DNA of 60,674 nt. It comes from an uncultured Verrucomicrobiota bacterium (lineage in GTDB: Bacteria; Verrucomicrobiota; Kiritimatiellia; CAIKKV01; CAITUY01). Below are positions 7,083-31,256 of this stretch, piece by piece. The position numbers and the translations under genes are program-made. The notes beneath the pieces are model-generated. The model made no database searches. It saw nothing but the letters and a program-made list of their open reading frames with translations, and had not been told where the DNA came from. The stretch lies in assembly GCA_964535015.1 (NCBI GenBank), contig CAZHRU010000005.1:1-60674 (forward strand). Reading direction: 5' to 3'. Position 1 is the first letter of the stretch. The number at the start of each line of letters is the position of its first letter.

Positions 7083-7100
7083 CCATGACGAGGTGTTCCC

Positions 7101-9041: not shown

Positions 9042-9088
9042 TTGGTTGAATTCGCTCTTAGCCGGAACGATTCCATGTTCACAGCAAG

Positions 9089-9168: not shown

Positions 9169-9295
9169 CAATCAAACCTCAAAGCAGACCTCATCTTCGC
9201 GGGCTTTGCGACTTCTGTTCAAACTCCATATTTTGGTTCCGGCTGCAACGGGTCAGTCAACGCCAACCGTCCCGGTGAGTCGCAGTCCAACACCG

Positions 9296-10084: not shown

Positions 10085-10134
10085 TTGTTTGCTCCCTTGT
10101 TTTGGAAAACCCGCCGCTTGGAAAGACCAACCCC

Positions 10135-10953
10135 TCAGCTCCGCCCGTAACTGTGAAGCCCCGACAGCAGGAAGTTCACCCCGTAGTAGGTGAACAGTAC
10201 CGAGAGAAATCCAATGATCGAGATCCATGCCGCCAGCCGCCCGCGCCAGCCGCGCATAAACCGGCAATGCAGAAAGACCGCATAGACAAACCATGTGATC
10301 AACGACCAGGTCTCCTTGGGGTCCCAGGACCAGTAGGTGCCCCAGGCCGAGTTCGCCCACACGGCACCGGTCAGAATACCCAGCGTGAGAAAAAGAAATC
10401 CAAAGGAAATGGTCTGCGTCAGGATCGTCTCCAGAGTCTCCTTGGTCTCCTCCTGCGCTGAACTTCCCTTCCGGGCCGATACCAGAAAACCAATCGAGAC
10501 CAGCGCCGAAATCGCGAACCCGCCATAACCGAGAAAACACGTCATTACATGGAAGGACAACCAGTTGCTCTGCAAGGCCGGCATCAGCGGCTTGATCGCC
10601 GATTCAAACGTGCTGGCATGCGCCAGGGCCAACCCCGCAAACGCCGCCGAGGCCGCCGTCAGCCAGGGAATCTTCGCCCAGATCCGTAACACCAGGTAAC
10701 CCACCGCCACCGTCCAGGCGAAAAGCACCAGCGATTCAAACATATTGCTGAAAGGGGCCCGACCCGCCTGCTCCCACCTTACCCCCAGATACACCATCTG
10801 GATCAGGGCGCCGGCGCCAATGAGCACATCGGCGGCAATGGTAAAAAAACGCCACCGCGCCATCACGTATACCACCGCACAAACAAGCGCCCCGAAATAG
10901 GCCCCCAGACTTGCGTTAAACAATGCGGTCATGTCACTAAAGAATGCGCTCAT
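10135..10953 (-). CDS. ccsA: Cytochrome c biogenesis system II CcsA/ResC
   Basis: WGTYWSWDPKETW (WWD) motif, conserved His in FHV and LHSY, multiple TM helices. Confidence 0.95.
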   Translation of the reverse strand: MSAFFSDMTALFNASLGAYFGALVCAVVYVMARWRFFTIAADVLIGAGALIQMVYLGVRWEQAGRAPFSNMFESLVLFAWTVAVGYLVLRIWAKIPWLTAASAAFAGLALAHASTFESAIKPLMPALQSNWLSFHVMTCFLGYGGFAISALVSIGFLVSARKGSSAQEETKETLETILTQTISFGFLFLTLGILTGAVWANSAWGTYWSWDPKETWSLITWFVYAVFLHCRFMRGWRGRLAAWISIIGFLSVLFTYYGVNFLLSGLHSYGRS

Positions 10954-15538: not shown

Positions 15539-15595
15539 CGCGAAAAGGCCATTAATCCTCCGTCACGCACTGTGATGGAGGGACGTCAGGCACAT

Positions 15596-15625
15596 GGGGC
15601 TCCCGCAAAGGAGCCCCGTTCTTTT
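15596..15625 (+). terminator. Rho-independent terminator
   Basis: GGGGCTCC-cgcaaa-GGAGCCCC followed by GTTCTTTT. Confidence 0.75.
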
Positions 15626-15643
15626 GACAGACAGGTCTATGGA

Positions 15644-16891
15644 ATGAACGAGGAATTAACACCCGCCACCCCCGCCCCACCGCAACAGTCCCGGCCATAT
15701 ACCGTCCTGGACCTGTTGGCTTCGGTCAAGTTTTCCGCCGCCGTCGTCCTCCTCTTGATCCTGGCCTGTATAGCAGGAACCGTGTTGCCACAGGATGGAC
15801 AGGTTGACCAGTATCTTGTCTCGCATCCGGACGCAGCCGGGCGTATGGCGATTCTGACGGCCGTTGGCCTCACCCACGTCTTCAGTGCCGGCTGGTTCAC
15901 CGCGCTGCTCTGCACCCTTTCCGCCTGCCTTGTCGTCTGCAGCCAACGCAGGTTTAAGGCGATGATCCGCTCCTCAGGCGCCCTGCGGGGTCGCGCCATC
16001 GCCTCCCTGATCCTCCATTCAAGCTTCCTCCTCATCCTCGCCGGCGCCCTGATCCGCTCGATCTGGGGAGTGAGCGGTCATATCCAGTTCAGGGAAGGCC
16101 AAACCCTCGCCGGGTTTGAGAGCAATAAGGGATCCCGCCCCCTTCCCTTTTCTATCCGCCTGGAGACGTTCGAAATCGAACGCTACCCGGTCGAATCCAC
16201 TACCGCCGCTCAACATGAGAACGAGTCCGTATCCCAATGGGGTCAACTGACGGTGCGATGGCCTGAGAAGGAAGTGATCACCAACGTCCCCGCCATTCCG
16301 GGAACGGAACAGATTCTTAAGCCGGAGGACGAACCCGCCTCATCCACAAACACCATGAAGGTCCGCGTTCTCCGTTACGTACCTGATTTCGTCATGGACA
16401 CCGCCGCCCGGGAAATCAGGACCCGCTCACTTGCCCCCAGAAATCCCGCCATTCAAGTTGTGGTCGAAACACCGGAAAAAACAACCACCAACTGGCTGTT
16501 TGCACGTCATCCGGAATTCGGCCTGCAGATGAATGGCGAGCACGCCGAATCGGCTCCACTTGCCAATTTGTATTACCGGCATTCCTCCAGACCGCAGGCA
16601 CCGCCCCCCATCAAAACCTTCCGCAGCACCGTGGCCATTCTGGACAAGGATCACCCGCAACCGTTGATCCGCACCTTGGCGGTCAATTCACCCCTGTCTC
16701 ATCGGGGCTACACCTTCTACCAGTCAGGGTATGATGAACGTGATCTCACCTGGACCTCCTTGCAGGTCGTGCGGGATCCGGGCGTCATGATTGTCTACGC
16801 CGGTTTTGTACTGACGCTGGTCGGTCTGGTCATGCTCTTTTGCCTCTACCCGCAGAAGCCCGTAAAGCCAAATACATCCCGCTATTCGTAG
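15644..16891 (+). CDS. resB: Second ResB/CcsB paralog (no adjacent ccsA)
   Basis: GTVLPQ, FSAGWF, LILHSSF, VNSPL..RGYTFYQSGY, VRDPG; shares an inserted domain with the first ResB. Start placed downstream of the terminator. Confidence 0.85.
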   Translation: MNEELTPATPAPPQQSRPYTVLDLLASVKFSAAVVLLLILACIAGTVLPQDGQVDQYLVSHPDAAGRMAILTAVGLTHVFSAGWFTALLCTLSACLVVCSQRRFKAMIRSSGALRGRAIASLILHSSFLLILAGALIRSIWGVSGHIQFREGQTLAGFESNKGSRPLPFSIRLETFEIERYPVESTTAAQHENESVSQWGQLTVRWPEKEVITNVPAIPGTEQILKPEDEPASSTNTMKVRVLRYVPDFVMDTAAREIRTRSLAPRNPAIQVVVETPEKTTTNWLFARHPEFGLQMNGEHAESAPLANLYYRHSSRPQAPPPIKTFRSTVAILDKDHPQPLIRTLAVNSPLSHRGYTFYQSGYDERDLTWTSLQVVRDPGVMIVYAGFVLTLVGLVMLFCLYPQKPVKPNTSRYS

Positions 16892-16894
16892 TTT

Positions 16895-16910
16895 TGTGAC
16901 ATTGCCCACA
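16895..16910. promoter_or_regulatory. CRP-like box TGTGA-CATTGC-CCACA
   Basis: 9/10 match to the CRP consensus, upstream of the OmcE-like gene. Confidence 0.55.
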
Positions 16911-17052
16911 CACTCATCCATCTGCGAATATATAACCATAGTTTCGGAATCACTCTTGGGATTCCGGAAAGCACGGGGAGAGATCCTCGCGCTGTTGACG
17001 GAAGGACGCTTTTTTGAGTAAGAACTCGTTTCAAAGGAAAGGTCAGTCGAAA

Positions 17053-17709
17053 ATGAATAAGAGGATGAAGTGGATGTCGGTGATGGTCGCGGGAACACTG
17101 GTGCTGTCAGGGGCGTCGATCGCGAAGGCGGGTATTGCCGGTTCAGCGCACGACTTCAGCACCGAACTATGGAGTGCCGGGACCTTGTGCGGAGTGTGCC
17201 ATGTCGCTCACAACGCCAAAACACCTCAATTGATTCCCTTGTGGAGCCATGAAACAAGTTCGGATGCCGGGTACACAATGTATACCAGCGCCACGTTCAA
17301 TGCGGCCGGAACCATTTCCGCGGCCCCTAGCGGTCCCTCGAAAGTCTGCCTGAGTTGCCATGACGGCACAGTTGCCGTTGACAATTTCGGCGGCACTACC
17401 AATGGAACAACCTACACAACGGCGGGATACGGCCTCCTCTCGAAGGACCTTAGCAATGATCACCCGATCTCCTTCACCTATGACTCCTCACTCGTGAGCG
17501 CGGACGGCTATCTGCATGAACCCACTACCGCAACTGTTCCCAACATGGGGACCAGGACCATTTCGCAGGTCATGCTGACCGACGGCAAAATGGAATGTTC
17601 GTCCTGCCATGACGTGCATCGGCAGAAGGGAAGTTCCGGATCCGACTCGACCCTGCTGATCGTCAATGGCGCAGGGAGCAAGTTGTGCTTGACCTGCCAC
17701 AACAAGTAG
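17053..17709 (+). CDS. omcE: OmcE-like secreted tetraheme cytochrome c (cytochrome nanowire family)
   Basis: About 218 aa with signal peptide; S.HD.S...CGVCH..HN...PLW...YTSAT...S..CLSCHDG...DLSNDHP..F...ECSSCHDVH...GSKLCLTCH.K follows the motif order I recall for Geobacter OmcE. Confidence 0.75.
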   Translation: MNKRMKWMSVMVAGTLVLSGASIAKAGIAGSAHDFSTELWSAGTLCGVCHVAHNAKTPQLIPLWSHETSSDAGYTMYTSATFNAAGTISAAPSGPSKVCLSCHDGTVAVDNFGGTTNGTTYTTAGYGLLSKDLSNDHPISFTYDSSLVSADGYLHEPTTATVPNMGTRTISQVMLTDGKMECSSCHDVHRQKGSSGSDSTLLIVNGAGSKLCLTCHNK

Positions 17710-17762
17710 GTAATCGTGCCCAGCGTAGGTTGCGCTGAGGTCCGCGACGATCGTTATCCATG

Positions 17763-17793
17763 GGCATCCGCCGGGAAACCGGCGGATGCCTTT
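17763..17793 (+). terminator. Strong 12-bp GAAA-loop hairpin after the OmcE-like gene (terminator or mRNA stabiliser)
   Basis: GGCATCCGCCGG-GAAA-CCGGCGGATGCC-TTT. Confidence 0.7.
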
Positions 17794-17816
17794 AGGTTAT
17801 TCTGGGACCGCCGGAA

Positions 17817-19010
17817 ATGGGGGCAAAACATACGATGCGACACATAATTCGACCTTTTTTGCTTGCGATCAGCGCCGTCTGCCTTCTGGCCGGGTGCGCC
17901 ACCCACCGCACCGGCGCAATTGCCCCGGTCTTCTACCCGCCACCCCCGGATCCGCCCCGCATTCAGTTCCTGAAGACCTTCTCCACCTCCCGGGATATCA
18001 ATCCGCAAAGCCGGTTCTCTCAATTTATCCTGGGCCCGCTTAGTCCGCGCCCCATCATCAAACCCTACGGGATTACCATCCACAGCAACTCCATTTACGT
18101 CTGCGATACCATGCTGGGCGGTCTCGCCGTTTTGGACCTCGAAAAACCCGCCATGGACTACTTTGTGCCTGCGGGACCGGGCCGCCTCCTCAAGCCCATC
18201 AACATTGCCATCGCTCCGGACGGAACCCGCTATGTCGCGGACTCCGAGCGAGGTCAGGTTCTCGTGTTCAACCCCACCGGAGACCTCCTCGGAACCATCG
18301 GCAAGAAAGCCGAACGCCGACAGAAGGCTTCCGAGCGAAGCGCCGAACCCGCACCTGGGAAGCCCGTCACAGACAAAAAGGAAAGCGCGGATTCGGAGAC
18401 CGACTCAGTGGACATGCGCCCCATCGATGTCCTCGTGAATTCCAATCGCCTCTTTGTCGCCGACCTGAAGGGACACTGCGTCCGCGTCTTCGACAAGCAA
18501 ACACTGGCGCCGGTCATGACCATTCCCGCGGGAGTGTCTACGAATGAAGAAGCCAAACTGCTATCCCCAACCAACCTGGCGCAAGATCAGCAGGGGCGCC
18601 TGTATGTGTGCGATACCGGCGCTTTCCGCGTCAAACTCTATGACAGCGACGGAACCTTCATCCGGTCGTTCGGTCGTTACGGTAACCGGTACGGGGAACT
18701 GGCTCGGCCCAAAGGAGTGGCTGTGGACCGTGAGGGTCGCGTCTATATCGCCGACGCCCAACTCGACGCCATTCAGGTCTTTGATCCCGCCGGTCAGTTG
18801 CTCATCTCTTTCGGCCAACCGGGCACCTCCCCAATCCCGCTTATCCTCCCGGCCAAGGTGGCCATTGACTATGATCACATCAAGTACTTCCAAAAGTATG
18901 TCGCGCCGGGATTCACACTAGACTATCTATTGCTGGTCACCAGCCAGTACGGCGAACGGAAGGTCAACGTGTATGGATTTGGACACTCCGTCAAACAAGA
19001 TTCGCCCTGA
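17817..19010 (+). CDS. NHL-repeat beta-propeller lipoprotein
   Basis: Lipobox LLAGC; repeats P.GIA.D..GR.YV.D. Confidence 0.85.
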   Translation: MGAKHTMRHIIRPFLLAISAVCLLAGCATHRTGAIAPVFYPPPPDPPRIQFLKTFSTSRDINPQSRFSQFILGPLSPRPIIKPYGITIHSNSIYVCDTMLGGLAVLDLEKPAMDYFVPAGPGRLLKPINIAIAPDGTRYVADSERGQVLVFNPTGDLLGTIGKKAERRQKASERSAEPAPGKPVTDKKESADSETDSVDMRPIDVLVNSNRLFVADLKGHCVRVFDKQTLAPVMTIPAGVSTNEEAKLLSPTNLAQDQQGRLYVCDTGAFRVKLYDSDGTFIRSFGRYGNRYGELARPKGVAVDREGRVYIADAQLDAIQVFDPAGQLLISFGQPGTSPIPLILPAKVAIDYDHIKYFQKYVAPGFTLDYLLLVTSQYGERKVNVYGFGHSVKQDSP

Positions 19011-20067
19011 CCCGGCCGCGGACTCCGCACCGTCAGCGCAACGGCATTATTGGCGGTTCGCCAAGACGCCATGGCGGGCATTAGCCGCCTGTGCCTTTGT
19101 TCTGCTGATCGCCGGGTGCGCCACTCGCACCCGTCACGAATGGCTGGTACTGTTCTTCGACGGCGTCCCCCCTGAACAAGGATCCAGCACCAACTCGGTA
19201 ATCTCCACCGCCACGGCGGGCACCAGCGCCGCCACAACCAATGCGCCCTCACGCCCCTTACCCCCTGCGCCCATTGTACACTCCCCCTATGCCGACCGCG
19301 ACTGCAACGCCTGCCACGAATCCGCCTTCTCGCAAAAAATGCGCGGAAAAACGAAAGACGTCTGCCTGGGTTGCCACACCGATCTCATGGATAAGGCCAA
19401 ATCCAAACATAGCCCGGCCGACGAAGGTGAATGCCTGACCTGCCACAACCCTCATGAGTCCCCGCAGAAATTCCTTCTGACCAAAAAACCAACCGCCTTG
19501 TGCATCAAGTGTCATGACGACCTGTCCAAGGTCAAGCACCCGCACGCCCCGGTCCAAGCAGGTGAATGCCTGGAATGCCATAAACCTCACGGCTCCGCCC
19601 AACCCCATCTGCTGTCCAGCAAACCTGAAACACTTTGCGGAACATGTCATACGGACATGGCCAAAGGGAAATATCCTCACGCTCCCGCTGAAGGCGGTGA
19701 GTGCAGCGCCTGCCATAAACCACACGGCTCCGATCTCCCCCATATGTTGGCAAAAAAGAGCGGAGACCTCTGCTTCTCCTGTCATGACAAATTCACCGCC
19801 AAGTTTATGCATGCCCCAGCCAAGGGCGGCGAGTGCCTCGAATGTCACCGCCCCCACGTCTCTTCAGAACCGGCGCTGGCCAGAAAATCCATCAAGACAC
19901 TGTGTTTCGATTGCCACGACAAGGACGAAGTGAAAGGTAAAACCGCCCACTCCACCATGGGGGATACCGCCTGCACCAAGTGCCACGACCCCCACGGCAC
20001 CGACCGCAAGTTCATGCTCAAGTCCACCAACAGCGTCCCGACCGCCGCCGCACCCGCAACCCCATGA
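18973..20067 (+). CDS. 11-heme lipoprotein cytochrome c (doubled-CXXCH repeat type)
   Basis: Lipobox LIAGC then FFDGVP; 11 CXXCH in repeats H.P...G.C..CH.PH.S....LL......LC..CH. Confidence 0.9.
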   Translation: MDLDTPSNKIRPDPAADSAPSAQRHYWRFAKTPWRALAACAFVLLIAGCATRTRHEWLVLFFDGVPPEQGSSTNSVISTATAGTSAATTNAPSRPLPPAPIVHSPYADRDCNACHESAFSQKMRGKTKDVCLGCHTDLMDKAKSKHSPADEGECLTCHNPHESPQKFLLTKKPTALCIKCHDDLSKVKHPHAPVQAGECLECHKPHGSAQPHLLSSKPETLCGTCHTDMAKGKYPHAPAEGGECSACHKPHGSDLPHMLAKKSGDLCFSCHDKFTAKFMHAPAKGGECLECHRPHVSSEPALARKSIKTLCFDCHDKDEVKGKTAHSTMGDTACTKCHDPHGTDRKFMLKSTNSVPTAAAPATP

Positions 20068-22049
20068 CGACGACACGGCACAACGTGCGACGGATCCTGC
20101 TGGCACCCCTCTGCGCCTTCCCTCTTGTGGTCTCCGCACAACCGTCCACCACGGCGCCCCAACTGCTTACGCTGTGGCTCGAAAGCCCATCCATCGTCTT
20201 CGATGCCGAGAAGAAGACTGAAACCCGGAAGAGTCCCGATCCCCTCAACTCCTACGAACAGGAAACCGTCCGCCTGAAACCCTCCTTGGACTTTACCCTC
20301 CGGGGTTCGGTCTACCACCCGAACTTCCTTGAATTCTACTTCCACGGCATGGAGGGCTTGGACTCCGAGGACACCACAACCACCCTCGCCGATGAATACA
20401 ATAGCAGTAGCCAAAGTTGGTTCCATAATTACAACGCCAACGCCTTGTTGTTCAGGGAGAAGCCGGTGACGTTCCAAGTCTTCGCCGAAAAGAACAGAAC
20501 TCGTCGCGAGTACGACTTCTTCTCGACTGTGGAAGTGGATTCACAGCGCTACGGAATGAGTAGCGGAATCAACAACACCAGAGTCCCGGCCTCGGTCAGC
20601 GTTTCTCATCTGGATGAAACCGTGGATGACCAGTTCCGACCTTCCACCCTCACCGAGGATGTGGCGGGCGTCACGCTCCGAAGCCAGCGCGGCATCGACA
20701 ATACCACTGACTTCAACTACCAGTACCGCAACTACGAACGGATGGAGAATGATGACTTCTCACAGTCCGGCACCGAAAACTCCGTTCAGATTGGCGATAC
20801 CGAACGTTTTGGCCTGCGCGATCAATTCAGGCTTGATTCCAACCTGTCCGCCTTCGACCTCGCCGACGATAACGGCTCCTATAACTCGTTGTCGCTCCGC
20901 GAGTCCCTGATCAACCAACATCGCCAGAATCTTGCGAGCATCTACCGGTACAACTTCAGACAGAACGAGCGCGACACCAGCCGGAACCATACGCATGAGG
21001 CCAGCGCGGGTCTCCGCCACAGACTTTACGAAAGTCTGGTTTCTTCCGGCGAACTCCACGGCGAACGCTCCGTTGACGACAGCGCCGAGGACCGCCTGCA
21101 AAAGGACCTCTATGGCGTCAACCTCGGCGAAGACTACACCAAACGCCTCGGCCTCTGGGGCCGCCTGAGTGCCGGCTATCATGTCCGGATCGATCAGGAA
21201 CGATGGAACGCCACCGGCAACGGAGGATTTTCCGTCATCGGCGAAATGCACACCCTTGCCGACGGCATCGTAACGTTACTGAACTACCCGGTGGCGAATA
21301 TCCAGGGCATCCGGGTCATGGACCTTACCGCCTCTCGCCTCTACCTGCCGGGCGTGGACTACACTGTCATCCCCCACGGCAACCGCGTGGAAATCAGGCG
21401 CGGCGTGACCGGCATCATTCCCAACGGAGGATCCGTTCTTGTGGACTACGATGCCACCAAGGCCAACTCCTCCAACTTCCGCTCCTTCGGCGACATGGCC
21501 TCGCTCCGGTTGGACCTTTTCGGGGATTTGATCGGCCTCTATACACGGCATGGACGGCAACGGTATTCCGGGGACGGCGCTCCTTTGTACCAGGAGTATA
21601 ACAGCACCCTGCTCGGCATGGATATTCACTGGGAGTTCTTCCGCGGCGGCGCCGAGCATGAGATTTATGATTCCGAACAGTCCCCCTATACCGCCACCCG
21701 CCTGTTCGAGACCTTCACTTTCAACCCCAACACCTATTCCATGCTCACCTTCGACTTCCGCCAATCCAACCTGCAATTCCCGGACCAGACGGAAGATCAG
21801 GACATCTACCAATTCATCGGCCAATACCAAGTCAGGGTAACCTCGACCTTGTCTCTCACCGCGGAGGGCGGCCAACAGTTCGAACGCGGATTCGGCGGCG
21901 ACCGTGATGTCACCACCTGGCGCGCCGGCGCCGACTACGCCATCGGACGCCTGACGTTCTCGGCCCGCTACGACCTCCAGGACGAATCCTATCGCGATGA
22001 GGAACGGGACCGCCGCATCATCCACTTCATAGCGAAGAGGGTCTTCTGA
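20064..22049 (+). CDS. Outer-membrane beta-barrel, putative porin of a porin-cytochrome conduit
   Basis: ATG overlaps the cytochrome stop (ATGA); signal peptide; amphipathic strands rich in Y/D/N/S; C-terminal Phe (KRVF). Confidence 0.75.
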   Translation: MTTTRHNVRRILLAPLCAFPLVVSAQPSTTAPQLLTLWLESPSIVFDAEKKTETRKSPDPLNSYEQETVRLKPSLDFTLRGSVYHPNFLEFYFHGMEGLDSEDTTTTLADEYNSSSQSWFHNYNANALLFREKPVTFQVFAEKNRTRREYDFFSTVEVDSQRYGMSSGINNTRVPASVSVSHLDETVDDQFRPSTLTEDVAGVTLRSQRGIDNTTDFNYQYRNYERMENDDFSQSGTENSVQIGDTERFGLRDQFRLDSNLSAFDLADDNGSYNSLSLRESLINQHRQNLASIYRYNFRQNERDTSRNHTHEASAGLRHRLYESLVSSGELHGERSVDDSAEDRLQKDLYGVNLGEDYTKRLGLWGRLSAGYHVRIDQERWNATGNGGFSVIGEMHTLADGIVTLLNYPVANIQGIRVMDLTASRLYLPGVDYTVIPHGNRVEIRRGVTGIIPNGGSVLVDYDATKANSSNFRSFGDMASLRLDLFGDLIGLYTRHGRQRYSGDGAPLYQEYNSTLLGMDIHWEFFRGGAEHEIYDSEQSPYTATRLFETFTFNPNTYSMLTFDFRQSNLQFPDQTEDQDIYQFIGQYQVRVTSTLSLTAEGGQQFERGFGGDRDVTTWRAGADYAIGRLTFSARYDLQDESYRDEERDRRIIHFIAKRVF

Positions 22050-23071
22050 TGCCCGTATTCACCAAGACGGCCAAGACCTCCCTCGTGGCAATTGGCACGA
22101 TCTCCTTCATGGCTGCCCTCGGCAGTGCCGATGCCGCCGCCCCATCCCCTGCCCCCTCATGGCCACCCCCGCCAGCCGGGGAACGCATCAGGTATGTGCA
22201 GAGCATGTCGACCCCCGCCGACATCGGCGCCCGGGTTTCCGTCTGGGGCCGACTCAAGGGCCTCATCACCGGCATACGATCGGACCGGGTCGCCATGAAC
22301 AAACCCTTTGGCGTTTCGACCGATCAGCAGGGCAACCTGTGCGTCACAGATACCGCCGCCGGAGCCATCCTGCTGTTCAATCGTGCCGACCACCGTTTCC
22401 AGCGGTTGGACTCGATCAGCGGCAGACCCCTCCCCTCCCCGGTCGCCGCCCTCGTCCACAACGGCCAACTGTTTGTCGCCGACTCCGCACTGGCAAAGGT
22501 CCTGGTCGCGGACCTCGACGGGCGTCTGCAATTCGAAATCCAGAACCTGATCCGCCCCACGGGACTAGCCCTGTGTGACGGTAAATTGTTCGTGGCGGAT
22601 GCCGGCGCGCACTGCATTGCCGTCTTCGACCTCAAGGGAACCCTCCTCCACCGGTTAGGCTCACGCGGCACCGGACCGGGCGAGTTCAATTCCCCAACCC
22701 ACATTTCCAGCGGCACTAACCATCGCATTCTTGTCACCGACTCCCTTAATGAACGTGTCCAGATTCTTGACATGGAAGGACGAAATCTTGGTATCATTGG
22801 ACGAGTCGGAAGCGGCGGGGGTCAATTCATCCGCCCAAAGGGGGTGGCAGTGGATAGTTTCGGTCACATCTACGTCGCCGATGCCCTGCATGACAACATT
22901 CAGGTGTTCGACGAGACCGGTCGCTTTCTCCTGAACTGGGGAGAATCAGGGTCTGGACCCGGCGAATTCTGGATGCCTTCAGGCATTGCCATCAGTTCGA
23001 AGAACGAAATCTTTGTGGCCGATTCGTACAATAGCCGCGTTCAGGTTTTCCAATACGTGGGGAAGGAATGA
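22049..23071 (+). CDS. NHL-repeat beta-propeller protein (secreted)
   Basis: Signal peptide; repeats GEFNSPTHI, GQFIRPKGVAVDS.G.IYV.D, GEFWMPSGIA. Confidence 0.9.
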   Translation: MPVFTKTAKTSLVAIGTISFMAALGSADAAAPSPAPSWPPPPAGERIRYVQSMSTPADIGARVSVWGRLKGLITGIRSDRVAMNKPFGVSTDQQGNLCVTDTAAGAILLFNRADHRFQRLDSISGRPLPSPVAALVHNGQLFVADSALAKVLVADLDGRLQFEIQNLIRPTGLALCDGKLFVADAGAHCIAVFDLKGTLLHRLGSRGTGPGEFNSPTHISSGTNHRILVTDSLNERVQILDMEGRNLGIIGRVGSGGGQFIRPKGVAVDSFGHIYVADALHDNIQVFDETGRFLLNWGESGSGPGEFWMPSGIAISSKNEIFVADSYNSRVQVFQYVGKE

Positions 23072-24861
23072 TAACGATCCGCATTTCAGCAAACCGATCC
23101 CAAGAGGCAGGGCGCACCGTCCCGGGGTGCCGCCTCGGGCTGGCCCTTTGCGTTTGGATCCTTCTGACAGTGACCGGCGCCGAGGCGAAAGGTGTCAGCG
23201 GCTCCAAACACGACCTCTCCGCCTCCGGTGGCAGTTCCATCAGGGCGTCCGCCGAAGGCGACGTGTGTATCTTCTGCCATGCCCCCCACAATGGATCCAG
23301 CGAAGCCCCACTCTGGAACCGCTACACACAAAAGACATTCTATACCCCCTATTCCAGTCCAACGCTCAAGGCAACCATCGGTCAGCCAACCGGCGCGTCC
23401 AAACTCTGCCTGAGTTGCCACGATGGAACCGTTGCCCTTGGCATGGTGCGTAGCCGCTCGAAACCAATCCCGCTTTCAGGCGGACACAGCAAAATGCCGG
23501 CAGGCCGCGCCAAACTGGGAACCGATCTCTCCGACGATCACCCCATCTCCTTCACGTATGACGCCGCCTTGCTCGCCAAAAACACGCAGTTAAAAAGCCC
23601 GGCGTCATTGAAAACCGCCGCGCGCCCCGACAAGTCCGGCCAGGTTCAGTGCACCTCCTGCCACGATCCACACAACAATGAATACGGCAACTTTCTGACC
23701 ATGAACAACGCTCAATCCGCCTTGTGCATATCCTGCCACGACATGACGTACTGGGCCACCTCCGACCATCGCACCTCTGCAAAACAGTGGAACGGGCAAG
23801 GCCAGAATCCCTGGCCGCATACCGAGGGCAAGACCGTTGCCGACAACGGGTGCGAGAACTGCCATTCCCCCCACCAAGCCGGAACCGCCGCCCACCTGAT
23901 GAACTTTGCCGGCGAGGAACAAAATTGCCTGCCCTGCCACAACGGGAATGTCGCCTCAAAGAACATCCAGGCGGACTTGGCCAAACGCAGTCGCCATGAT
24001 GTGGCCGCCACGACCGGGATTCACGATCCCACCAAGAGCCCCTCCGCCTCCGCACGCCATGTGGAGTGCGTGGATTGCCACAATCCGCACGCCGCTCGCG
24101 GCGGCGCCACCGCCCTCTCCAGCAAAGCATCCCCCCCCGGACTCGACAGCACCCTCCTCGGCGTGGCCGGCGTCAGCGCCGCCGGAAGCGCCCTGAAGGC
24201 CGCCAGTCACGAGTATGAGATCTGCTTCCGCTGCCACGAAAACCAGACGCCCGGCCAGACCGCCACCGTGTCGCGCAAGTCCAACCCCTCCAGCCTGCGG
24301 CTGAAGTTTTCCGCAGGCAACGCCTCTTATCACCCCGTCGTGGCGGCCGGACACAATCCCGATGTCCCAAGTCTGATTTCCTCGTACAACGCCTCCAGCA
24401 TCATCAAATGCACCGACTGCCATAATAGCGATCAGGGTCCCGCCGCGGGCGGCCAAGGCGCAAGAGGCCCGCATGGCTCAACGTATGCCCCACTTCTTGA
24501 ACGGAAACTGGTCACCACCGACTTCGGCTCGGAAAGTCCCGCGGCCTACGCTCTGTGCTACAAGTGCCATAACCGGCAAAGCATTCTGAACAACGAGAGT
24601 TTCCCCGAACACAGCCGCCATATCGTGGATGAGAAGACCGCCTGCACCACCTGCCATGACTCGCATGGCGTCAATGAATCCACCGCCCTCATCAACTTCA
24701 ACACGGCCTACGTGTCACCCGGCGCCAGCAGCATCTCATTCCAGCACACAGGCCGGTTCCAGGGAAGTTGTTCCCTCACCTGCCACGGCACCACCCATGA
24801 CAACCAGACCTATGGAACACCCGCCATGTTTTTGAAACCCGCAACAAAACGGCGACGATAG
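23068..24861 (+). CDS. 12-heme cytochrome c (11 CXXCH + C-terminal CX3CH) with an N-terminal OmcE-like module
   Basis: Motifs counted in the translation; the first four hemes align motif by motif with the 17053-17709 protein. Confidence 0.9.
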   Translation: MITIRISANRSQEAGRTVPGCRLGLALCVWILLTVTGAEAKGVSGSKHDLSASGGSSIRASAEGDVCIFCHAPHNGSSEAPLWNRYTQKTFYTPYSSPTLKATIGQPTGASKLCLSCHDGTVALGMVRSRSKPIPLSGGHSKMPAGRAKLGTDLSDDHPISFTYDAALLAKNTQLKSPASLKTAARPDKSGQVQCTSCHDPHNNEYGNFLTMNNAQSALCISCHDMTYWATSDHRTSAKQWNGQGQNPWPHTEGKTVADNGCENCHSPHQAGTAAHLMNFAGEEQNCLPCHNGNVASKNIQADLAKRSRHDVAATTGIHDPTKSPSASARHVECVDCHNPHAARGGATALSSKASPPGLDSTLLGVAGVSAAGSALKAASHEYEICFRCHENQTPGQTATVSRKSNPSSLRLKFSAGNASYHPVVAAGHNPDVPSLISSYNASSIIKCTDCHNSDQGPAAGGQGARGPHGSTYAPLLERKLVTTDFGSESPAAYALCYKCHNRQSILNNESFPEHSRHIVDEKTACTTCHDSHGVNESTALINFNTAYVSPGASSISFQHTGRFQGSCSLTCHGTTHDNQTYGTPAMFLKPATKRRR

Positions 24862-24874
24862 GTCCGAATACCCT

Positions 24875-27568
24875 ATGAGGTCCATGACCATGGATGCGAC
24901 ACCAACACCTGCAAACCATCAGAACGGGTTGCTCATCCGCGCGGTTTCGGGTCTGTACCTCGTGAGCCTGCTCTGGTGCATCCCTGCGGCATCCCTGGCA
25001 AGTGACCCGCCCCATACCAATGCGAACGCCTGCGCCACCTGTCACCTGACCCATAATGCGTTTGGCCCGCTCCTCCTGACCAACGGGGTTGCCAATCTGT
25101 GCTTGTCGTGCCACTCCGCGGGCGGCGAGGCATCCGCCAAGCCCTTTGCCTCCGCCAACCAGGCATGGCCCTGGCCGGGTCTACCCGCCGCTACAAACGC
25201 CTCCGGCACCTCCCACCGCTGGGATGCCGGCGCGGCAGGCCATGTCGTCTTCCAGGGCGGCGCCGTGACCTCCTCCACCGGCATCATCTTTCCCGGCGGC
25301 GTCTACACCGGCGCCTACCCGAAGACCTACACCGTGACGATCACCAATGCGGGCAACGCCGGGGTCGCCCGTTTCAACTGGACCGCCACCCTCCCCGGCG
25401 GCGGTGCCGGCACGAACCTGCTCGCCGCCACCAACACCCCCCTCGACCAGGGCATTCTCCTCACCTTCGCCAACGGAACCGGCGTATCCTTCCAAGTCAA
25501 TGACCGCTGGATCATCCCCGTCCGTCCCGATCTGCGCGCACCCACCAATACGTTCATGCTGACCCGCCTCGTCAATGGATCCGTCGTTTGCTCCACCTGC
25601 CACGACCAGCATAGCCAACTCAAGACGCCCTTCGATCCGGCCGCGCCGACGAACACCACCTCTGCCGGCCGTCATTTCATGCGCGTGGCTAACGATCAGA
25701 ACCAGATGTGCCTGGACTGCCACGCCACCCGCAATGTCACCAACGCGATTCAGGGATCTCACCCAGTGGGCATCAGCACCCTTTCCAACACCCTGTACAA
25801 ACTCCCCGCCTCCCTGCCTCTCTCGAAAACCATCAACCATGTCGGTTGCCTGACCTGCCACACTCCCCACTACGCCCCCGCCAACAACGGCATGCTCCTC
25901 CGCATGACCAATACCCTCGCCCTCTGCGTGGATTGCCACCAACTGGCCAACACCAATACCCCCGGTTGCCACTTCATCACGACCAATGCCGCCACCCTCT
26001 GGCCGGGCGGCCAATACGGGTCCCTCCTGACCAATCGAACCGATGCCGCCTTGCAGGGCTCCTGCCTGAACTGCCACAGGGTACACGGCTGGCCCGATGC
26101 CGCCAATCCCACCAATGACTACCCGCGTCTCCTCGCCGACCGCGAGGAAAACCTCTGCTTTACCTGCCACGACGGCAACGGCCCCGCCGCCAAGGATGTC
26201 TACGTCGCCTTCACCAACGTCTATCATCATACGGTCCTCGATGCCGAACAGCGCCCGGGCCGCACCGTGGAGTGCCTGGACTGCCATAACGTCCATCAGT
26301 CCATTTCCAACGGCCATGTCTACACCAATTCGGCAACCTCCACCCGCAACCTGGTATCCAACCCGCTCAAGGGAGTCCCCGGTGTCGCCATCACCTACTC
26401 ATCCTTGACCAATTTCTCCGGAGTAACCACAAACCTGTACACCGCCATTCCCCAGTCCACCAATGAGTACCAGATCTGCATGAAGTGCCATTCGGGATAT
26501 GGTTACCCCGTCAATACCGCCGGAACCGCCTCTTTCACCACCAACACCTCCGCGGTAAGCGGCTCCGGCACCCAGTGGTCCAGCAACCTGGTGGGACAGA
26601 CACTCTTTCGCGCCAATGACCCGACACTTTACGTCATCACCGACGTAACCAGTGCAACCAGTCTATCCATCACCCCTCCCTATTCGGGGGCGACTGCCGC
26701 CGGCCAGTCCTTCACCATCATGGGGTTGCCGCCGGGCCTCACCCCCGTCTACACCAACGGAACGGCCGCCTTCACCAACAACAGCACCACCGTCAAGGGA
26801 ACCAGTACCACGTGGGGATCCGGAATGATCGGCCTGTGGATCGCACCCACCTCCACGCCTGCCGTCCTCTACAGGATCACGGCAGTCCTCAACACAACAA
26901 CCCTCACCATCGTCCCGGCCTATGCCGGCGCAAACAGTACCGGTCAGCGCTACCACATAACCGGAGGCACCGACCTCGCCCAGGAATTCAGCCCGATGAA
27001 CATGTCGGGGCACCCCATCTACACGGGCCTGAGCAACTACGTCAACACCCTCGCCCCGCGCGGACTCCTCGCCACCGCCCTCCGCCCGCCATGGAACGCC
27101 AACGTCGGCAACCAAACCATGATGTGCTCGGATTGCCACGACGACACGACCACCAATTACGTCCCCGGCGCTGCTCAGGGTCCCCACGGTTCCGCCTACC
27201 AATACATCCTGCGGGGCCCCAACGGCAACAACTGGCCGAATGTCACCTCCTTCGCCTCCAGTTGGTGCGCCAATTGCCACATCGACAACGTCGGCAAAGA
27301 AATGCACACCCGCGGTGAACACACTGCCGCGAACTGCTACGGATGCCACATCGTCATACCCCACGGCGGCAAGGTCTCCCGCCTCATTGGCGACCGCGAC
27401 ACCATGCCGGCCCGCTACGCCTGGAACAACACACTCACCAACATGCAGGTTTCCGCCTTCAAGAAGACCACCGCCAACAGTTACGCCGAGGGATCCAGCG
27501 GGAACTGCGCGGCCGCCTGCAGTAGCACCGACAAGCATCCCTCAATTTCAGGAGCCGAAAACTGGTGA
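24875..27568 (+). CDS. 13-heme secreted cytochrome c with inserted beta-rich domains
   Basis: 13 CXXCH, a terminal CAAACSSTDKH, two repeated ~68-aa inserts and one N-terminal beta insert; T/N-rich. Confidence 0.9.
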   Translation: MRSMTMDATPTPANHQNGLLIRAVSGLYLVSLLWCIPAASLASDPPHTNANACATCHLTHNAFGPLLLTNGVANLCLSCHSAGGEASAKPFASANQAWPWPGLPAATNASGTSHRWDAGAAGHVVFQGGAVTSSTGIIFPGGVYTGAYPKTYTVTITNAGNAGVARFNWTATLPGGGAGTNLLAATNTPLDQGILLTFANGTGVSFQVNDRWIIPVRPDLRAPTNTFMLTRLVNGSVVCSTCHDQHSQLKTPFDPAAPTNTTSAGRHFMRVANDQNQMCLDCHATRNVTNAIQGSHPVGISTLSNTLYKLPASLPLSKTINHVGCLTCHTPHYAPANNGMLLRMTNTLALCVDCHQLANTNTPGCHFITTNAATLWPGGQYGSLLTNRTDAALQGSCLNCHRVHGWPDAANPTNDYPRLLADREENLCFTCHDGNGPAAKDVYVAFTNVYHHTVLDAEQRPGRTVECLDCHNVHQSISNGHVYTNSATSTRNLVSNPLKGVPGVAITYSSLTNFSGVTTNLYTAIPQSTNEYQICMKCHSGYGYPVNTAGTASFTTNTSAVSGSGTQWSSNLVGQTLFRANDPTLYVITDVTSATSLSITPPYSGATAAGQSFTIMGLPPGLTPVYTNGTAAFTNNSTTVKGTSTTWGSGMIGLWIAPTSTPAVLYRITAVLNTTTLTIVPAYAGANSTGQRYHITGGTDLAQEFSPMNMSGHPIYTGLSNYVNTLAPRGLLATALRPPWNANVGNQTMMCSDCHDDTTTNYVPGAAQGPHGSAYQYILRGPNGNNWPNVTSFASSWCANCHIDNVGKEMHTRGEHTAANCYGCHIVIPHGGKVSRLIGDRDTMPARYAWNNTLTNMQVSAFKKTTANSYAEGSSGNCAAACSSTDKHPSISGAENW

Positions 27569-28977
27569 TTCCCCCCCTCCAGCGTGTTCTCCGTTCGCCG
27601 GGGATTGTGATGACTGAAATTGCGGCCTTGGCTCTCGCCTGTTCGCTGGGCGTACTGTGGCCAACCCTTGCCGTCTTCCAATCCCCCTGGTTCCTCGTCA
27701 TAACCGCCATTGCAGCCCTCTCCCTGCTGATCGCCGTCCGTGATCAGGGGCGCCGCCTGCTCTGCGGCGACGTCACGGCCAGGCGGGTCGGCTCCATGAT
27801 GCTTCATCTCGGACTCATCGCCATCATCGCCGCCGGTGCCTGGCGCGCCCTTTTCTCCTCTGAGGCCGTCGTGGATCTCATCGAAGGCGAAACCCTACCC
27901 CCCGCCCCAACCGCCTGGACCCATCAACCTCCCGGCCTGCTGGCCACCCCCTTTCACCTGACCCGGCCCATCACCCTGGAGGCCCTCCATGGAAGCCGCT
28001 ATCCCGACGGCCGCCTTCGCGATCTCTCGGCCACCCTCTCGGCCGGAACCGTGGCCGTCAATCACGACCTCATCCTCCCGGGCGGACGTATCTTCCTTGA
28101 CCAGACGTTCGGTCCCGCCGCCCTCCTTGAGTGGCATCCGCCGCAGAAGTCGGCCGTATTGCTCGATCCTGAAACCCGCACGGCAACCGCCACGGGGCCG
28201 GACGGACTAACGGCATACCTGCGCGCCCCCCCCATCCGCCCCGATCATGTCGAAGTTCGCGTCATGCGGAATAACGGCCTCCTCTTCTCCGGTGAACTCC
28301 GCCCCGGACAAACCCTGTCCCTCCACGGTGGCGCAACGCTGACCTTGCGCGGCATCCCCCTCTGGACTCGCCTCCGCGGCAGTCACGACCACTCGCACCG
28401 CCTCGCCTACCCCGGCTTTGCCCTCATCCTGATCGGTTGTATCCTGCTCTTCGCACGCACTGCCCCGCCTCAAGGACTGCGCGTCGTCGCGTCCGCACCC
28501 CTCTTCCTGTCGGCCATCCTTCTCGCCGGGTGTAACCGCACCTCAACCGAGGAAGCCCGCCAACTCGTCCTCCGCTACAACACCCTCGTTGCCGAGGCCT
28601 ATCGCCGCGGCGACCCTCACTTGATTGAACCCGTCGTCAGCCTCAACGAAGGCAAGAAACTCACCGGCCTCATCGGCGTTCGCTCGGACCTGGGCCTCAC
28701 CCTCGACTCCGAACTGCTGTCCCTCACGCTCATCGCTGCTGAGCAGCGCGCCCGCAAACTGCGGGTTCAAACAAAAGAGCAGTGGCGCTATCGTGACCGC
28801 AAAATCGGCACCGGTGAACAGGTCGGCGAGGAGTCCTCAGATTCCTACGAGATGCTGTACCTGTTCACTCAGACCAACCGGACATGGATAGTGGATGAAA
28901 TCCAATTCACCTCCCCACCCAGGATCGGCCGCAAACAGATGACCTGGCAGGAATCGCGTAATCCGGAAAAACCATGA
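27565..28977 (+). CDS. Reduced ResB-like protein fused to a C-terminal lipoprotein-like alpha/beta domain
   Basis: F.SPWF, MMLHLGL, V.VNHDL, D..H.LAYPGF, then a hydrophobic stretch with LLAGC and a further ~150-aa domain in the same frame. Confidence 0.7.
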   Translation: MIPPLQRVLRSPGIVMTEIAALALACSLGVLWPTLAVFQSPWFLVITAIAALSLLIAVRDQGRRLLCGDVTARRVGSMMLHLGLIAIIAAGAWRALFSSEAVVDLIEGETLPPAPTAWTHQPPGLLATPFHLTRPITLEALHGSRYPDGRLRDLSATLSAGTVAVNHDLILPGGRIFLDQTFGPAALLEWHPPQKSAVLLDPETRTATATGPDGLTAYLRAPPIRPDHVEVRVMRNNGLLFSGELRPGQTLSLHGGATLTLRGIPLWTRLRGSHDHSHRLAYPGFALILIGCILLFARTAPPQGLRVVASAPLFLSAILLAGCNRTSTEEARQLVLRYNTLVAEAYRRGDPHLIEPVVSLNEGKKLTGLIGVRSDLGLTLDSELLSLTLIAAEQRARKLRVQTKEQWRYRDRKIGTGEQVGEESSDSYEMLYLFTQTNRTWIVDEIQFTSPPRIGRKQMTWQESRNPEKP

Positions 28978-29801
28978 ACGTTTTCACCCTTGAAACCATC
29001 CTGCACTGGACCGGCGTCGGCCTCTACATCCTGGCGGTCATCACCTTCGCCAACGCCATCCTCTTCGCGCATCCCGACCGCACCCGCCGCGCCTGCTGGA
29101 TCACCGCCATCGGCCTCCTCCCCCACTCCGCCGCCCTCGTCGTCCGCTACCTCAACGTCGGCCATGGCCCCTACATGCTGAAGTACGAGGTCCTCTCCTC
29201 CAACGCCTGGATCGCCATTGCCATGCTCCTCGTCTTCATCTGGCGCCGCCCCGCCTGGTCCGCCGCCGCCCTCGTCGTCCTGCCGGCCGCCATCCTGATG
29301 GTTGGCCTGGGCCTCTTCACAAATCCCGAGGCGCGGAACCTGCCACCCACCCTGCGATCCATGTGGCTGGTCTTCCACGTCCTCTTCAATAAACTCGCCG
29401 TCGGCGCCTTCCTGCTATCCGTCGCCACAGCAACCTGCCTGCTTCGCAAACTGGGCGGCGCTTCCGCCCGCTGGCTCGACCGCCTCCCCGCACCCGATGC
29501 CCTTGAGGCCTACACCGTCCGCTTCATCGGATTCGGGTTCATCTTCTGGACCACCACCATCGGCGCCGGCGCCATCTGGGCCCACCAGTCCTGGGGCCGC
29601 TACTGGGCCTGGGACCCCATCGAAACCTGGTCGCTCGTCACCTGGCTGGCCTACGCCACCCTCCTGCATATCAAGGTGTTCTTCCGCCTCTCGGCGCGCA
29701 CCACCGCCTGGAGCACCGTCGCCTGCTTCATCCTCTCGGTCCTCACCATCCTGATCTTCCCGTTTGTGTTCCCTTCCATGCACTCAGCCTATTTCCAATA
29801 A
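28974..29801 (+). CDS. ccsA: Second CcsA/ResC paralog
   Basis: WGRYWAWDPIETW, FHV and MHSAY; multiple TM helices. Confidence 0.9.
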   Translation: MNVFTLETILHWTGVGLYILAVITFANAILFAHPDRTRRACWITAIGLLPHSAALVVRYLNVGHGPYMLKYEVLSSNAWIAIAMLLVFIWRRPAWSAAALVVLPAAILMVGLGLFTNPEARNLPPTLRSMWLVFHVLFNKLAVGAFLLSVATATCLLRKLGGASARWLDRLPAPDALEAYTVRFIGFGFIFWTTTIGAGAIWAHQSWGRYWAWDPIETWSLVTWLAYATLLHIKVFFRLSARTTAWSTVACFILSVLTILIFPFVFPSMHSAYFQ

Positions 29802-31252
29802 TGAGCCGTAAACACCCGGAAATCATGCTGGTCACCCCGCCCTACCATTCCGGGGTCGTGGAGTCCGCCGGTTCCTGGCTGCCCCTCGGCCTCCTTTACG
29901 TGGCTGGCGCCTTGCAACGCGCCGGTTACGGCGTCTCCCTCTATGACGCCATGACCCGTTTCCACACCCTGGAACAGGTCCGGCAAACCATCCGGCGGGA
30001 ACAACCGGACGCCGTCTTTGTCTCCTGCATCACCGCCACCGTCATGGACGGCATGGACGTCTGCCGTGTGGCCAAGGAGGAGTTCCCCGACACCCTCACC
30101 GTCCTCGGCAACACCCATCCCACGTTCATGTATGAGGAAATTCTCCGGGATCACCCCGAGGTGGATGTCATCGTCCGCGGCGAAGGCGAGATTACCTCGG
30201 TGGAACTAATGGACGCCTGGAAAACCGGAGCCAACCCCGGCAACGTCCGCGGCATCGCCTTTCGCGACGGAAACTCCATCGTGGCGACACCCTGCCGCCC
30301 GTTTATCCCCAACCTGGATTCCACCGCTCCGGCCTGGGACCTGGTCCCCTGGAAGGAATATACGTACCGCCCCAAACCCGGATCAATCCTCGCCGTCGTT
30401 TCCTCATCCCGAGGCTGTAAACAACATTGCTCCTTCTGCTCCCAGCGCCTGTTCTGGGAGGAATCCTGGCGCGCCGTCTCTCCCGAATCGTTCGTCAATG
30501 AACTCGAGATGCTCCGACGCCGTCACGGGGTCAACGTCGCCATGATCGCCGACGAAATCCCCACCCTGGACGCCGCACGCTGGGAACGGATTCTCGACCT
30601 CCTGATCGAACGCGACCTCGGCATCGCCCTCCTGCTGGAGACACGGGTTGACGACATTCTACGCGACGCCCACCTCCTGCCCCGCTACCGCCAGGCTGGC
30701 ATCGAACACATCTATGTCGGCGTCGAATCCGTCGACCAGGCCACCCTGGATCTCTTCAAGAAGGACGTCAAGGTCGAGCAGAACAAACGCGCCATCGAAC
30801 TCCTGAACCAGCATGACATCATCTCGGAGACCTCCTTCGTCATGGGTCTACCCGGCGACACGCCCGCGAGTATGGACCGCACCATCGAACTGGCCAAGTT
30901 CTACGACCCGGATATGGCGTTCTTCCTCGCCATCACCCCCTGGCCCTACGCCGATATCTATAATGACGTCAAGGACCACATTGCAGTTTGGGACTACCGG
31001 AAGTATAATTTGGTCGAACCGATAATCAAACCCGACACCATGACGTTGGCCGAGGTTCATGGACATCTCTTCCGGGGCTTCCGTGATTTTTACATGAACA
31101 AGATGAAGCAACTTCCAACCATGCCGGAGTGGAAGCAGGCGTTTATGAAATCACTGATGAAACTCTTGATGGACCATTCCTACCTGAAGGACCAAATGGG
31201 CGGCATGAACCCCCCTTCTATTCAACCTCTTCCCCCTACCCCAGTGAGGTGA
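29801..31252 (+). CDS. Cobalamin-binding radical SAM protein, BchE-like
   Basis: N-terminal B12 domain (PLGLLYVAG); CKQHCSFC cluster motif; ETRVDDILRD and TPWPY segments resemble BchE as I recall it; coupled to ccsA (TAATG). Confidence 0.8.
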   Translation: MSRKHPEIMLVTPPYHSGVVESAGSWLPLGLLYVAGALQRAGYGVSLYDAMTRFHTLEQVRQTIRREQPDAVFVSCITATVMDGMDVCRVAKEEFPDTLTVLGNTHPTFMYEEILRDHPEVDVIVRGEGEITSVELMDAWKTGANPGNVRGIAFRDGNSIVATPCRPFIPNLDSTAPAWDLVPWKEYTYRPKPGSILAVVSSSRGCKQHCSFCSQRLFWEESWRAVSPESFVNELEMLRRRHGVNVAMIADEIPTLDAARWERILDLLIERDLGIALLLETRVDDILRDAHLLPRYRQAGIEHIYVGVESVDQATLDLFKKDVKVEQNKRAIELLNQHDIISETSFVMGLPGDTPASMDRTIELAKFYDPDMAFFLAITPWPYADIYNDVKDHIAVWDYRKYNLVEPIIKPDTMTLAEVHGHLFRGFRDFYMNKMKQLPTMPEWKQAFMKSLMKLLMDHSYLKDQMGGMNPPSIQPLPPTPVR

Positions 31253-31256
31253 CGCC

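Follow-up and report, generated by a model that had tools for sequence, protein, structure and literature searches.

Gene content of the cluster

The DNA analysed here, referred to as the window, is a stretch of 60,674 nucleotides (nt) of contig CAZHRU010000005.1 from an uncultured bacterium of the Kiritimatiellia, and all positions are given in window coordinates. Six open reading frames (ORFs) between 17817 and 27568, all on the + strand, encode two NHL beta-propellers (NHL1 and NHL2), a large beta-barrel of the outer membrane and three multihaem cytochromes (cyt11, cyt12 and cyt13), and a small gene just upstream encodes a relative of the nanowire cytochrome OmcE. By its gene content and homologies, the cluster appears to be a form of the omcE cluster family that belongs to the Planctomycetota-Verrucomicrobiota-Chlamydiota (PVC) lineage. 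The six ORFs had been singled out by an original prediction, made from the window sequence, as a nanowire-linked machine spanning the cell envelope. Their positions were verified, as were, by motif counts, the 11, 12 and 13 haems assigned to the cytochromes and the two lipoboxes (NHL1 and cyt11), and the gene order NHL1, cyt11, barrel, NHL2 has the propellers flanking the barrel-cytochrome pair as described. The operon exceeds the bounds then given, running from the OmcE-like gene at 17053 to at least 32882. Its features as far as cyt13 are:

17053-17709, + strand: OmcE-like tetrahaem cytochrome, putative filament subunit (4 CxxCH; phmmer matches to 7tfs_A and 9yuq)
17762-17790, + strand: hairpin between the OmcE-like gene and NHL1 (RNA folding)
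17817-19010, + strand: NHL1, six-bladed propeller lipoprotein (Pfam NHL, lipobox LLAGC, AlphaFold2 model)
18973-20067, + strand: cyt11, 11-haem MtrA-like lipoprotein (11 CxxCH, PF09699, lipobox LIAGC)
20064-22049, + strand: outer-membrane beta-barrel ('porin'), 661 amino acids (AlphaFold2 model)
22049-23071, + strand: NHL2, secreted NHL propeller (Pfam NHL, signal peptide)
23068-24861, + strand: cyt12, 12-haem cytochrome (OmcE module and PF22113)
24875-27568, + strand: cyt13, 13-haem cytochrome with fibre-like beta inserts (13 CxxCH)

The reading frames of NHL1 and cyt11 overlap by 38 nt, and the junctions at which translational coupling had been noted were found as described: ATGA at 20064 (cyt11 stop and barrel start), TGATG at 22049 (barrel stop and NHL2 start) and ATGA at 23068 (NHL2 stop and cyt12 start). 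Coupling extends 3' of cyt13 (GTGA at 27565, ATGA at 28974, 1 nt shared by the two genes at 29801). Start/stop overlaps are commonplace in operons; those found here support co-translation of the genes and nothing beyond it.

The OmcE-like subunit and the fused cytochrome cyt12

The small OmcE-like protein matches the solved OmcE filaments (7tfs_A, E = 2.4e-19; 9yuq, E = 6.1e-19), and in addition to its 4 CxxCH motifs it keeps all four non-motif histidines of 7TFS and 9YUQ (in AHD, CHVAH, NDHP and CHDVH); an alternative start of the gene is TTG 17014. The combination that marks the OmcE family, four CxxCH with four extra haem-ligand histidines, is present both in this protein and in the N-terminal domain of cyt12. 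Residues ~22-225 of cyt12 (23131-23742) constitute a complete OmcE module (7tfs_A, E = 2.2e-30; 9yuq, E = 6.3e-25), which is thus more similar to OmcE than the small protein is (7TFS, E = 2.2e-30 versus 2.4e-19). The C-terminal part of cyt12 is an 8-haem extension with an MtrC-like domain (PF22113, 44 bits versus a cut-off of 30), bringing the haem motifs to 11 CxxCH and one CSLTCH.

Across the related loci cyt12 is the best-conserved protein of the cluster (43-56% identity), and 45 of its 49 orthologues have exactly 11 CxxCH and one longer motif. In a maximum-likelihood tree all 49 N-terminal domains fall in one clade (support 100/99), which joins the Desulfobacterota OmcE clade that includes 7TFS (97/95), with the small PVC-type subunits placed separately. 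Because the N-terminal domains form a single clade, the tree indicates one ancient fusion of an OmcE module to the 8-haem part. Loci L020, L021 and L025, from metagenome-assembled genomes (MAGs) labelled Verrucomicrobiota and Candidatus Acidoferrum (Acidobacteriota), encode small OmcE-like proteins that are nearly identical (branch lengths 0.04-0.06), owing either to mis-binning or to recent transfer.

The hairpin at 17762-17790, between the OmcE-like gene and NHL1, has a GC-rich stem of 13 base pairs closed by a GAAA loop, and its U tract is weak. The fold of 17700-17825 (-58.8 kcal/mol, z = -3.8) was equalled in stability by none of 200 shuffles. A simple terminator scan did not call this hairpin, and a scan for consensus promoters and terminators inside the operon found nothing above chance. 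By acting as a partial terminator or as a stabiliser, the hairpin may set how much subunit is made relative to the helpers, and its place directly 3' of the small gene fits a structural subunit predicted to be expressed above its helpers.

cyt11, cyt13 and the outer-membrane barrel

cyt11 has 11 CxxCH motifs in paired units (PF09699, E = 8e-68) and matches PDB entry 6r2q_A (E = 8.4e-17), which from its length of 333 amino acids we take for the MtrA subunit of the Mtr complex, although its database label differs. It scores below the cut-off of the DmsE/MtrA decahaem family (TIGR03508, 128.1 bits versus 192.2) and so lies outside that family as defined. Most cyt11 orthologues have a lipobox-like motif. 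Their CxxCH counts (loci L001-L063) are 5, 9, 11, 13, 15, 17, 19 or 21, with one of 3, and nearly all are odd; against the fixed 12 haems of cyt12, cyt11 looks, to judge from its motifs, like a wire whose length can be adjusted through the number of its paired-CxxCH units.

The 13-CxxCH cytochrome cyt13 is found in only a subset of the related loci. A domain of ~70 amino acids at its residues 548-617 (26516-26725) matches the side fibre of F2-pyocin in the N-terminal portion (PDB 25ve, E = 6.9e-9), and a second, similar repeat lies 3' of this fibre-like domain. Neither cyt12 nor cyt13 matches the OmcA/MtrC family model TIGR03507 at E<=0.01, which is scored by cyt11 alone (22 bits versus a cut-off of 209); of the features of OmcA/MtrC surface decahaems, cyt12 shows only the generic MtrC domain II/IV (PF22113).

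The barrel was modelled with AlphaFold2 from an alignment of 33 homologues (predicted local distance difference test score, pLDDT, 88.7; predicted template-modelling score, pTM, 0.78), giving about 28-30 strands and a C-terminal phenylalanine. It has no sequence match in Pfam, NCBIfam or PDB, profile search included, and none of its 64 homologues bears a functional name. A Foldseek search of PDB gave MtrB (6r2q_B) the highest TM-score (0.42) among the best-ranked matches, with FimD ushers, TonB receptors and LptD matching at similar E-values, so that the modelled fold points to a large outer-membrane barrel and no finer class; on the lack of a sequence match and a fold TM-score of 0.42 it does not group with the 26-strand barrels of the MtrB family. 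A beta insert of ~70 amino acids occupies residues ~399-465 (21258-21458), and this same part of the barrel, at profile positions 368-466, matches a portion of an ORF of 1826 amino acids in another genome of the phylum (G754:C125:374-670).

As in the Mtr/Pcc conduits (6R2Q), the cluster encodes an elongated multihaem cytochrome on the periplasmic side, resembling MtrA, a large barrel and a surface multihaem cytochrome. It might therefore be a plain conduit of this kind without a filament, in which cyt11 occupies the barrel, the surface reductases are cyt12 and cyt13, the small tetrahaem protein is monomeric at the surface or in the periplasm, and the NHL proteins stabilise the complex. The resemblance of cyt11 to MtrA, the rank of MtrB by TM-score and the MtrC-type domain of cyt12 all favour such a conduit, similar Verrucomicrobiota clusters have been modelled as Mtr-like in a preprint on peat (bioRxiv 10.64898/2026.05.27.727921), and a stabilising role for NHL proteins has been proposed (PMC5815863). 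MtrCAB, in contrast, has neither propellers nor OmcE modules, its barrel has 26 strands and that of the window probably more (28-30), and the window proteins score below the DmsE/MtrA and OmcA/MtrC cut-offs. Two separate OmcE-fold modules with all of their haem ligands are kept in nearly every locus, the solved OmcE relatives are filaments, and high expression of a structural subunit would be consistent with the strong hairpin that follows the small gene. A conduit lacking a filament is considered unlikely.

The NHL propellers

NHL1 (PF01436, E = 3.6e-20) has the lipobox LLAGC and was modelled as a six-bladed propeller (pLDDT 90.1, pTM 0.85), which in Foldseek reaches a TM-score of 0.8 to the NHL domains of TRIM2/3. 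NHL2 (PF01436, E = 1.7e-32), 29% identical to NHL1, carries a signal peptide that lacks a lipobox cysteine. Lipobox-like motifs are present in 41 of 51 NHL1 orthologues and 17 of 47 NHL2 orthologues. Near the N-terminus, 46 of the 51 NHL1 orthologues carry the motif FFPPPPDEPRIQFLTSFS, NHL2 carries WPPPPAGERIRYV (WPxPPxxPRIxY among its orthologues), and the NHL lipoprotein of the Geobacter-type omcE cluster carries YFWPPLPERPRLEWIGAYSS. On this shared motif the propellers are assigned to a cluster-specific family that takes in NHL1, NHL2 and the omcE-adjacent NHL protein of the Geobacter relative, a relationship that is new here. The NHL1 model places the N-terminal strand RIQFLKT at high confidence, and the strand is read as closing the ring, completing the sixth blade. 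The possibility that the PPPP-PRIQF motif is a free docking peptide was rejected because it forms a confident strand in the model and is at least partly structural.

Weak Pfam SGL matches (E~1e-8) and an amidating lyase (PAL) at rank 37 of the fold search could suggest that the NHL proteins, placed beside cytochromes by chance, have an enzymatic activity of the lactonase/SGL or amidating-lyase kind. However, their place in the operon is constant across at least eight phylum-level lineages, the invariant columns of NHL1 include no histidine or other metal-binding cluster, the sole invariant cysteine being that of the lipobox, and the fold search ranks highest NHL interaction domains that are not enzymes. 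An enzymatic role was rejected on the invariant columns and fold matches, and we regard it as scarcely credible. The propellers have no redox motif either. Most probably they serve OmcE-fold modules as non-catalytic subunits for assembly or scaffolding: they would hold, deliver or dock these modules at the barrel, in loose analogy to a chaperone-usher chaperone or to barrel partners of the BamB/LptE type. The original prediction knew of no established function for these propellers, and for those of OmcE clusters that still holds.

Conservation of gene order

Conserved synteny had been named as a check on the original prediction, and the gene order proved to recur, in about 50 genomes. A scan of species-representative genomes with a 13-sequence barrel alignment yielded 59 related loci. 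Among the 56 with a barrel gene, 26 have the exact order OmcE, NHL1, cyt11, barrel, NHL2, cyt12; in 4 further loci the small cytochrome best matches the cyt12 N-terminal domain, not the OmcE-like protein of the window, and the remaining loci are mostly cut by contig ends. Six metagenome contexts, with barrel identity falling from 51% to 25%, have the same succession of small tetrahaem cytochrome, NHL, cytochrome, barrel, NHL and a cytochrome of ~550-590 amino acids. The nearest locus is in a Kiritimatiellia MAG from Lake Mendota (90% identity). Others are mostly from Verrucomicrobiota and also from Victivallales, Phycisphaerae/Planctomycetota, Candidatus Acidoferrum, Nitrospirota, Aminicenantes and one deltaproteobacterial MAG, so that the order spans at least eight phylum-level lineages. 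The distribution is patchy: in the phylum of the window, 379 high-quality genomes include 3 with the barrel family, which was not found in the sampled genomes of the same genus and family.

Loci of a Verrucomicrobia subdivision 3 lineage lack NHL2, and some of them lack an adjacent cyt11, so neither protein is indispensable and the invariant core consists of NHL1, the barrel, cyt12 and a small tetrahaem cytochrome; the invariance of the first three as a trio is new here. Joint loss of NHL2 and cyt11, as expected of a partnership between them, was rejected: locus L012 has NHL2 without an adjacent cyt11, and L016 has cyt11 without NHL2.

Relation to the omcE clusters of Desulfuromonadia

The omcE clusters comprise OmcE, two multihaem cytochromes, two beta-propeller lipoproteins and a large barrel that has been proposed as a 'secretion pore or anchor' (PMC13712944, mBio 2026). 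The five phyla listed for them include no PVC member, the anchor is stated not to be encoded in OmcE operons, and the secretion, start, anchoring and termination of cytochrome nanowires are stated to be an open question (PMC13712944). The window shares its parts with the clusters of Geobacter sulfurreducens (7TFS) and D. soudanensis WTL (9YUQ): an OmcE tetrahaem cytochrome, a large barrel, two propellers (the lipoprotein NHL1, and NHL2 without a lipobox), two multihaem cytochromes to which cyt13 is added, and resB/ccsB. The trans-envelope machine linked to a nanowire that had been predicted thus gains support through its tie to an OmcE-like subunit, whereas the cluster type itself had already been described (PMC13712944).

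A Desulfobacterota genome with an OmcE 78% identical to 7TFS has the order purHD-resB-ccsB-cytochrome-cytochrome-NHL lipoprotein-omcE-barrel-glycosyltransferases (two multihaem cytochromes; the barrel a protein of 746 amino acids), in agreement with the published description (PMC13712944). NHL2 is 31% identical to the omcE-adjacent NHL lipoprotein of this Geobacter relative (93% coverage, E = 7e-37), cyt11 is homologous to its counterpart there (E = 9e-34), and so is CcsA. Homology between the window and the Geobacter type thus covers the OmcE module, the NHL propeller with its motif, the MtrA-like cytochromes and ResB/CcsA. The differences are in gene order (resB-ccsB, two multihaem cytochromes, NHL, omcE, barrel in the Geobacter type, versus omcE, NHL1, multihaem cytochrome, barrel, NHL2, multihaem cytochrome in the window), in the barrels, which are unrelated or highly diverged, in the fusion of an OmcE module to an 8-haem part, which did not turn up when the omcE cluster of the Geobacter relative was examined, in the glycosylation gene block, which the window cluster lacks, and in the host, of a PVC lineage versus the five non-PVC phyla of PMC13712944. 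On these homologies the window cluster is assigned to the omcE cluster family as a PVC form, distinguished by how its genes are ordered, by a barrel that is unrelated or highly diverged, and by a cytochrome with an OmcE module fused into it.

An NHL gene directly adjoins the OmcE-type gene in 9 of the 10 Desulfobacterota loci. At locus L077 of the same Geobacter relative, G105 (positions 8460-11558 of that locus, minus strand), the best homologue of NHL2 (35% identical, E = 2.6e-57) adjoins a 4-haem OmcE-like gene, which is followed by a 7-CxxCH gene homologous to the C-terminus of cyt12, so that the latter two genes look like a 'split cyt12'. Because of these loci, the most general rule across cluster types, new here and followed by most of the loci examined, is that an NHL propeller adjoins an OmcE-fold cytochrome. 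Judged by their sizes and order, neighbouring ORFs at L077 may be genes for a type IV pilus or for type II secretion.

Neighbouring genes

Downstream of cyt13 the operon continues with:

27565-28977, + strand: ResB-like protein, System II cytochrome c maturation (PF05140, E = 3e-9)
28974-29801, + strand: CcsA, System II cytochrome c maturation (PF01578, E = 6e-31; TIGR03144, E = 2e-40)
29801-31252, + strand: B12-binding radical S-adenosylmethionine (SAM) protein (PF02310, PF04055)
31257-32882, + strand: third NHL propeller, fused to immunoglobulin-like (Ig) domains (NHL and Ig_3/I-set)

Genes for ResB-like proteins and CcsA are present on both sides of the cytochrome cluster (Pfam, NCBIfam), and the pair translationally coupled downstream of cyt13 is, by its annotation and position, a dedicated maturation pair. 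The radical SAM and NHL/Ig genes are conserved together with cyt13, ResB and CcsA in loci L012, L013 and L017. Against the subdivision 3 loci (L012, L013, L017 and L041), proteins of the tail at 24875-32882 are much more similar (CcsA 72-74% and radical SAM 76-77% identical) than those of the core genes (30-55%), which suggests a separate history of the tail module or stronger constraint on it.

Upstream, at 3207-9041, the minus strand carries a gene for a NapC/NirT-type (ImcH-like) cytochrome, which is divergent from two tandem CbcL-like genes, which encode fusions of an 11-haem part to cytochrome b. These genes are likely the inner-membrane entry points of an electron-transfer island.

Comparison with other electron-transfer clusters

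Haem wires are reversible in principle, and the cluster might operate in reverse, taking up electrons from Fe(II) minerals, reduced organic matter or partner cells. The uet cluster of Candidatus Tenderia electrophaga and Gallionella, for which electron uptake has been proposed (bioRxiv 10.1101/2022.05.06.490989; PMC9900912), is similar by parts list alone, having an extracellular tetrahaem cytochrome (UetA), a 28-strand barrel (UetC), two NHL proteins (UetH/I), an undecahaem cytochrome (UetJ) and CcsA/CcsB directly downstream. It differs in its prolyl isomerase (UetB), triheme c7 cytochromes (UetDEG) and cupredoxin (UetF), none of which was found by domain searches among the ORFs at 13082-32882. 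The direction of electron flow is not readable from sequence, and the upstream genes are of the CbcL-/ImcH-like quinol-oxidase type, as in Geobacter reducers. Uptake by a Uet-like route seems rather improbable.

The osc (omcS-companion) cluster of G. sulfurreducens (Shen et al. 2025) is alike by description alone, in that a nanowire subunit gene is accompanied, as reported in PMC13194489 and PMC13712944, by channel-like outer-membrane proteins (OscEFG) and the propeller-like OscD, which according to the citation in PMC13194489 is proposed to maintain OmcS nanowire morphology. As described there, its subunit OmcS has six haems versus four in the OmcE-like protein, and its prolyl-isomerase chaperone OscH has no counterpart in the window, since neither OmcS-like nor prolyl isomerase genes were found in 13082-32882.

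The peat clusters EET1-4 are syntenic sets of a porin and multihaem cytochromes in Verrucomicrobiota and Acidobacteriota, with 'OmcE-like' and 'MtrA-like' cytochromes of 8-13 haems, and EET3 and EET4 resemble the window by description (bioRxiv 10.64898/2026.05.27.727921); the loci collected here include MAGs of Limisphaerales and from peat. Unlike the window cluster, those of the preprint are described with no mention of NHL or propeller proteins (bioRxiv 10.64898/2026.05.27.727921). NHL genes also adjoin outer cytochromes in D. ferrophilus (PMC5815863, PMC9769857), and it was there that NHL proteins were proposed by Deng et al. 2018 to stabilise an outer-membrane cytochrome complex (PMC5815863).

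Proposed function and significance

From the gene content, folds, homologies and synteny established above we infer a topology, an electron path, filament formation and a role for the propellers, and conclude that the region is probably the helper core of a PVC-type omcE cluster, a trans-envelope cytochrome machine. The upstream CbcL-/ImcH-like quinol oxidases (3207-9041) would reduce periplasmic carriers, from which the lipid-anchored, MtrA-like cyt11 would carry electrons into or through the barrel of ~28-30 strands. Outside, cyt12 would take over, with its C-terminal 8-haem part and MtrC-like domain, while its N-terminal OmcE module would present an OmcE-type interface linking the conduit to a polymer. 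The small OmcE-like tetrahaem cytochrome would polymerise on this interface or be capped by it. cyt13 may be an optional extra surface cytochrome with fibre-like domains, and NHL1, a putative outer-membrane lipoprotein, and NHL2, predicted to be secreted, would both be non-redox assembly or scaffold subunits.

Several points weigh against this interpretation. To our knowledge, no filament of any PVC-type OmcE homologue has yet been observed. The barrel has no sequence homology to MtrB and a weak fold match to it (TM-score 0.42), and no homology to the 746-amino-acid barrel of the Geobacter-type cluster was detected (hhalign probability 1.3%). NHL2 is missing from the subdivision 3 lineage, as is an adjacent cyt11 from some of its loci (L013, L017, L024 and L041). 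In D. ferrophilus, whose clusters are likened to this one by their NHL content, cytochrome deletions in NHL-containing clusters left Fe(III) oxide reduction unimpaired (PMC9769857).

A more specific version of the helper-core interpretation, which is speculative although worth considering, is an assembly line for a heteromeric wire that resembles a chaperone-usher system. In it cyt12 would be the built-in primer or anchor through which the filament is electrically plugged into the barrel. Each propeller would act, in the periplasm or at the outer membrane, as the dedicated chaperone of an OmcE-fold module, blocking premature polymerisation of its open haem/histidine interface and delivering it to the barrel. 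If so, cyt12 would be the 'anchor' that OmcE operons are said not to encode (PMC13712944).

Far beyond Desulfuromonadia, in Kiritimatiellia, Verrucomicrobiota, Lentisphaerota, Planctomycetota, Acidobacteriota and others, the helper set recurs as a rigidly conserved unit. Clusters of this kind were already described in papers of 2025-2026, and the value of the locus lies in the testable pairing rules that it provides, each propeller with an OmcE-fold module and the barrel with cyt11 and cyt12. Uncultured PVC bacteria of freshwater and soil are likely to be extracellular electron exchangers.

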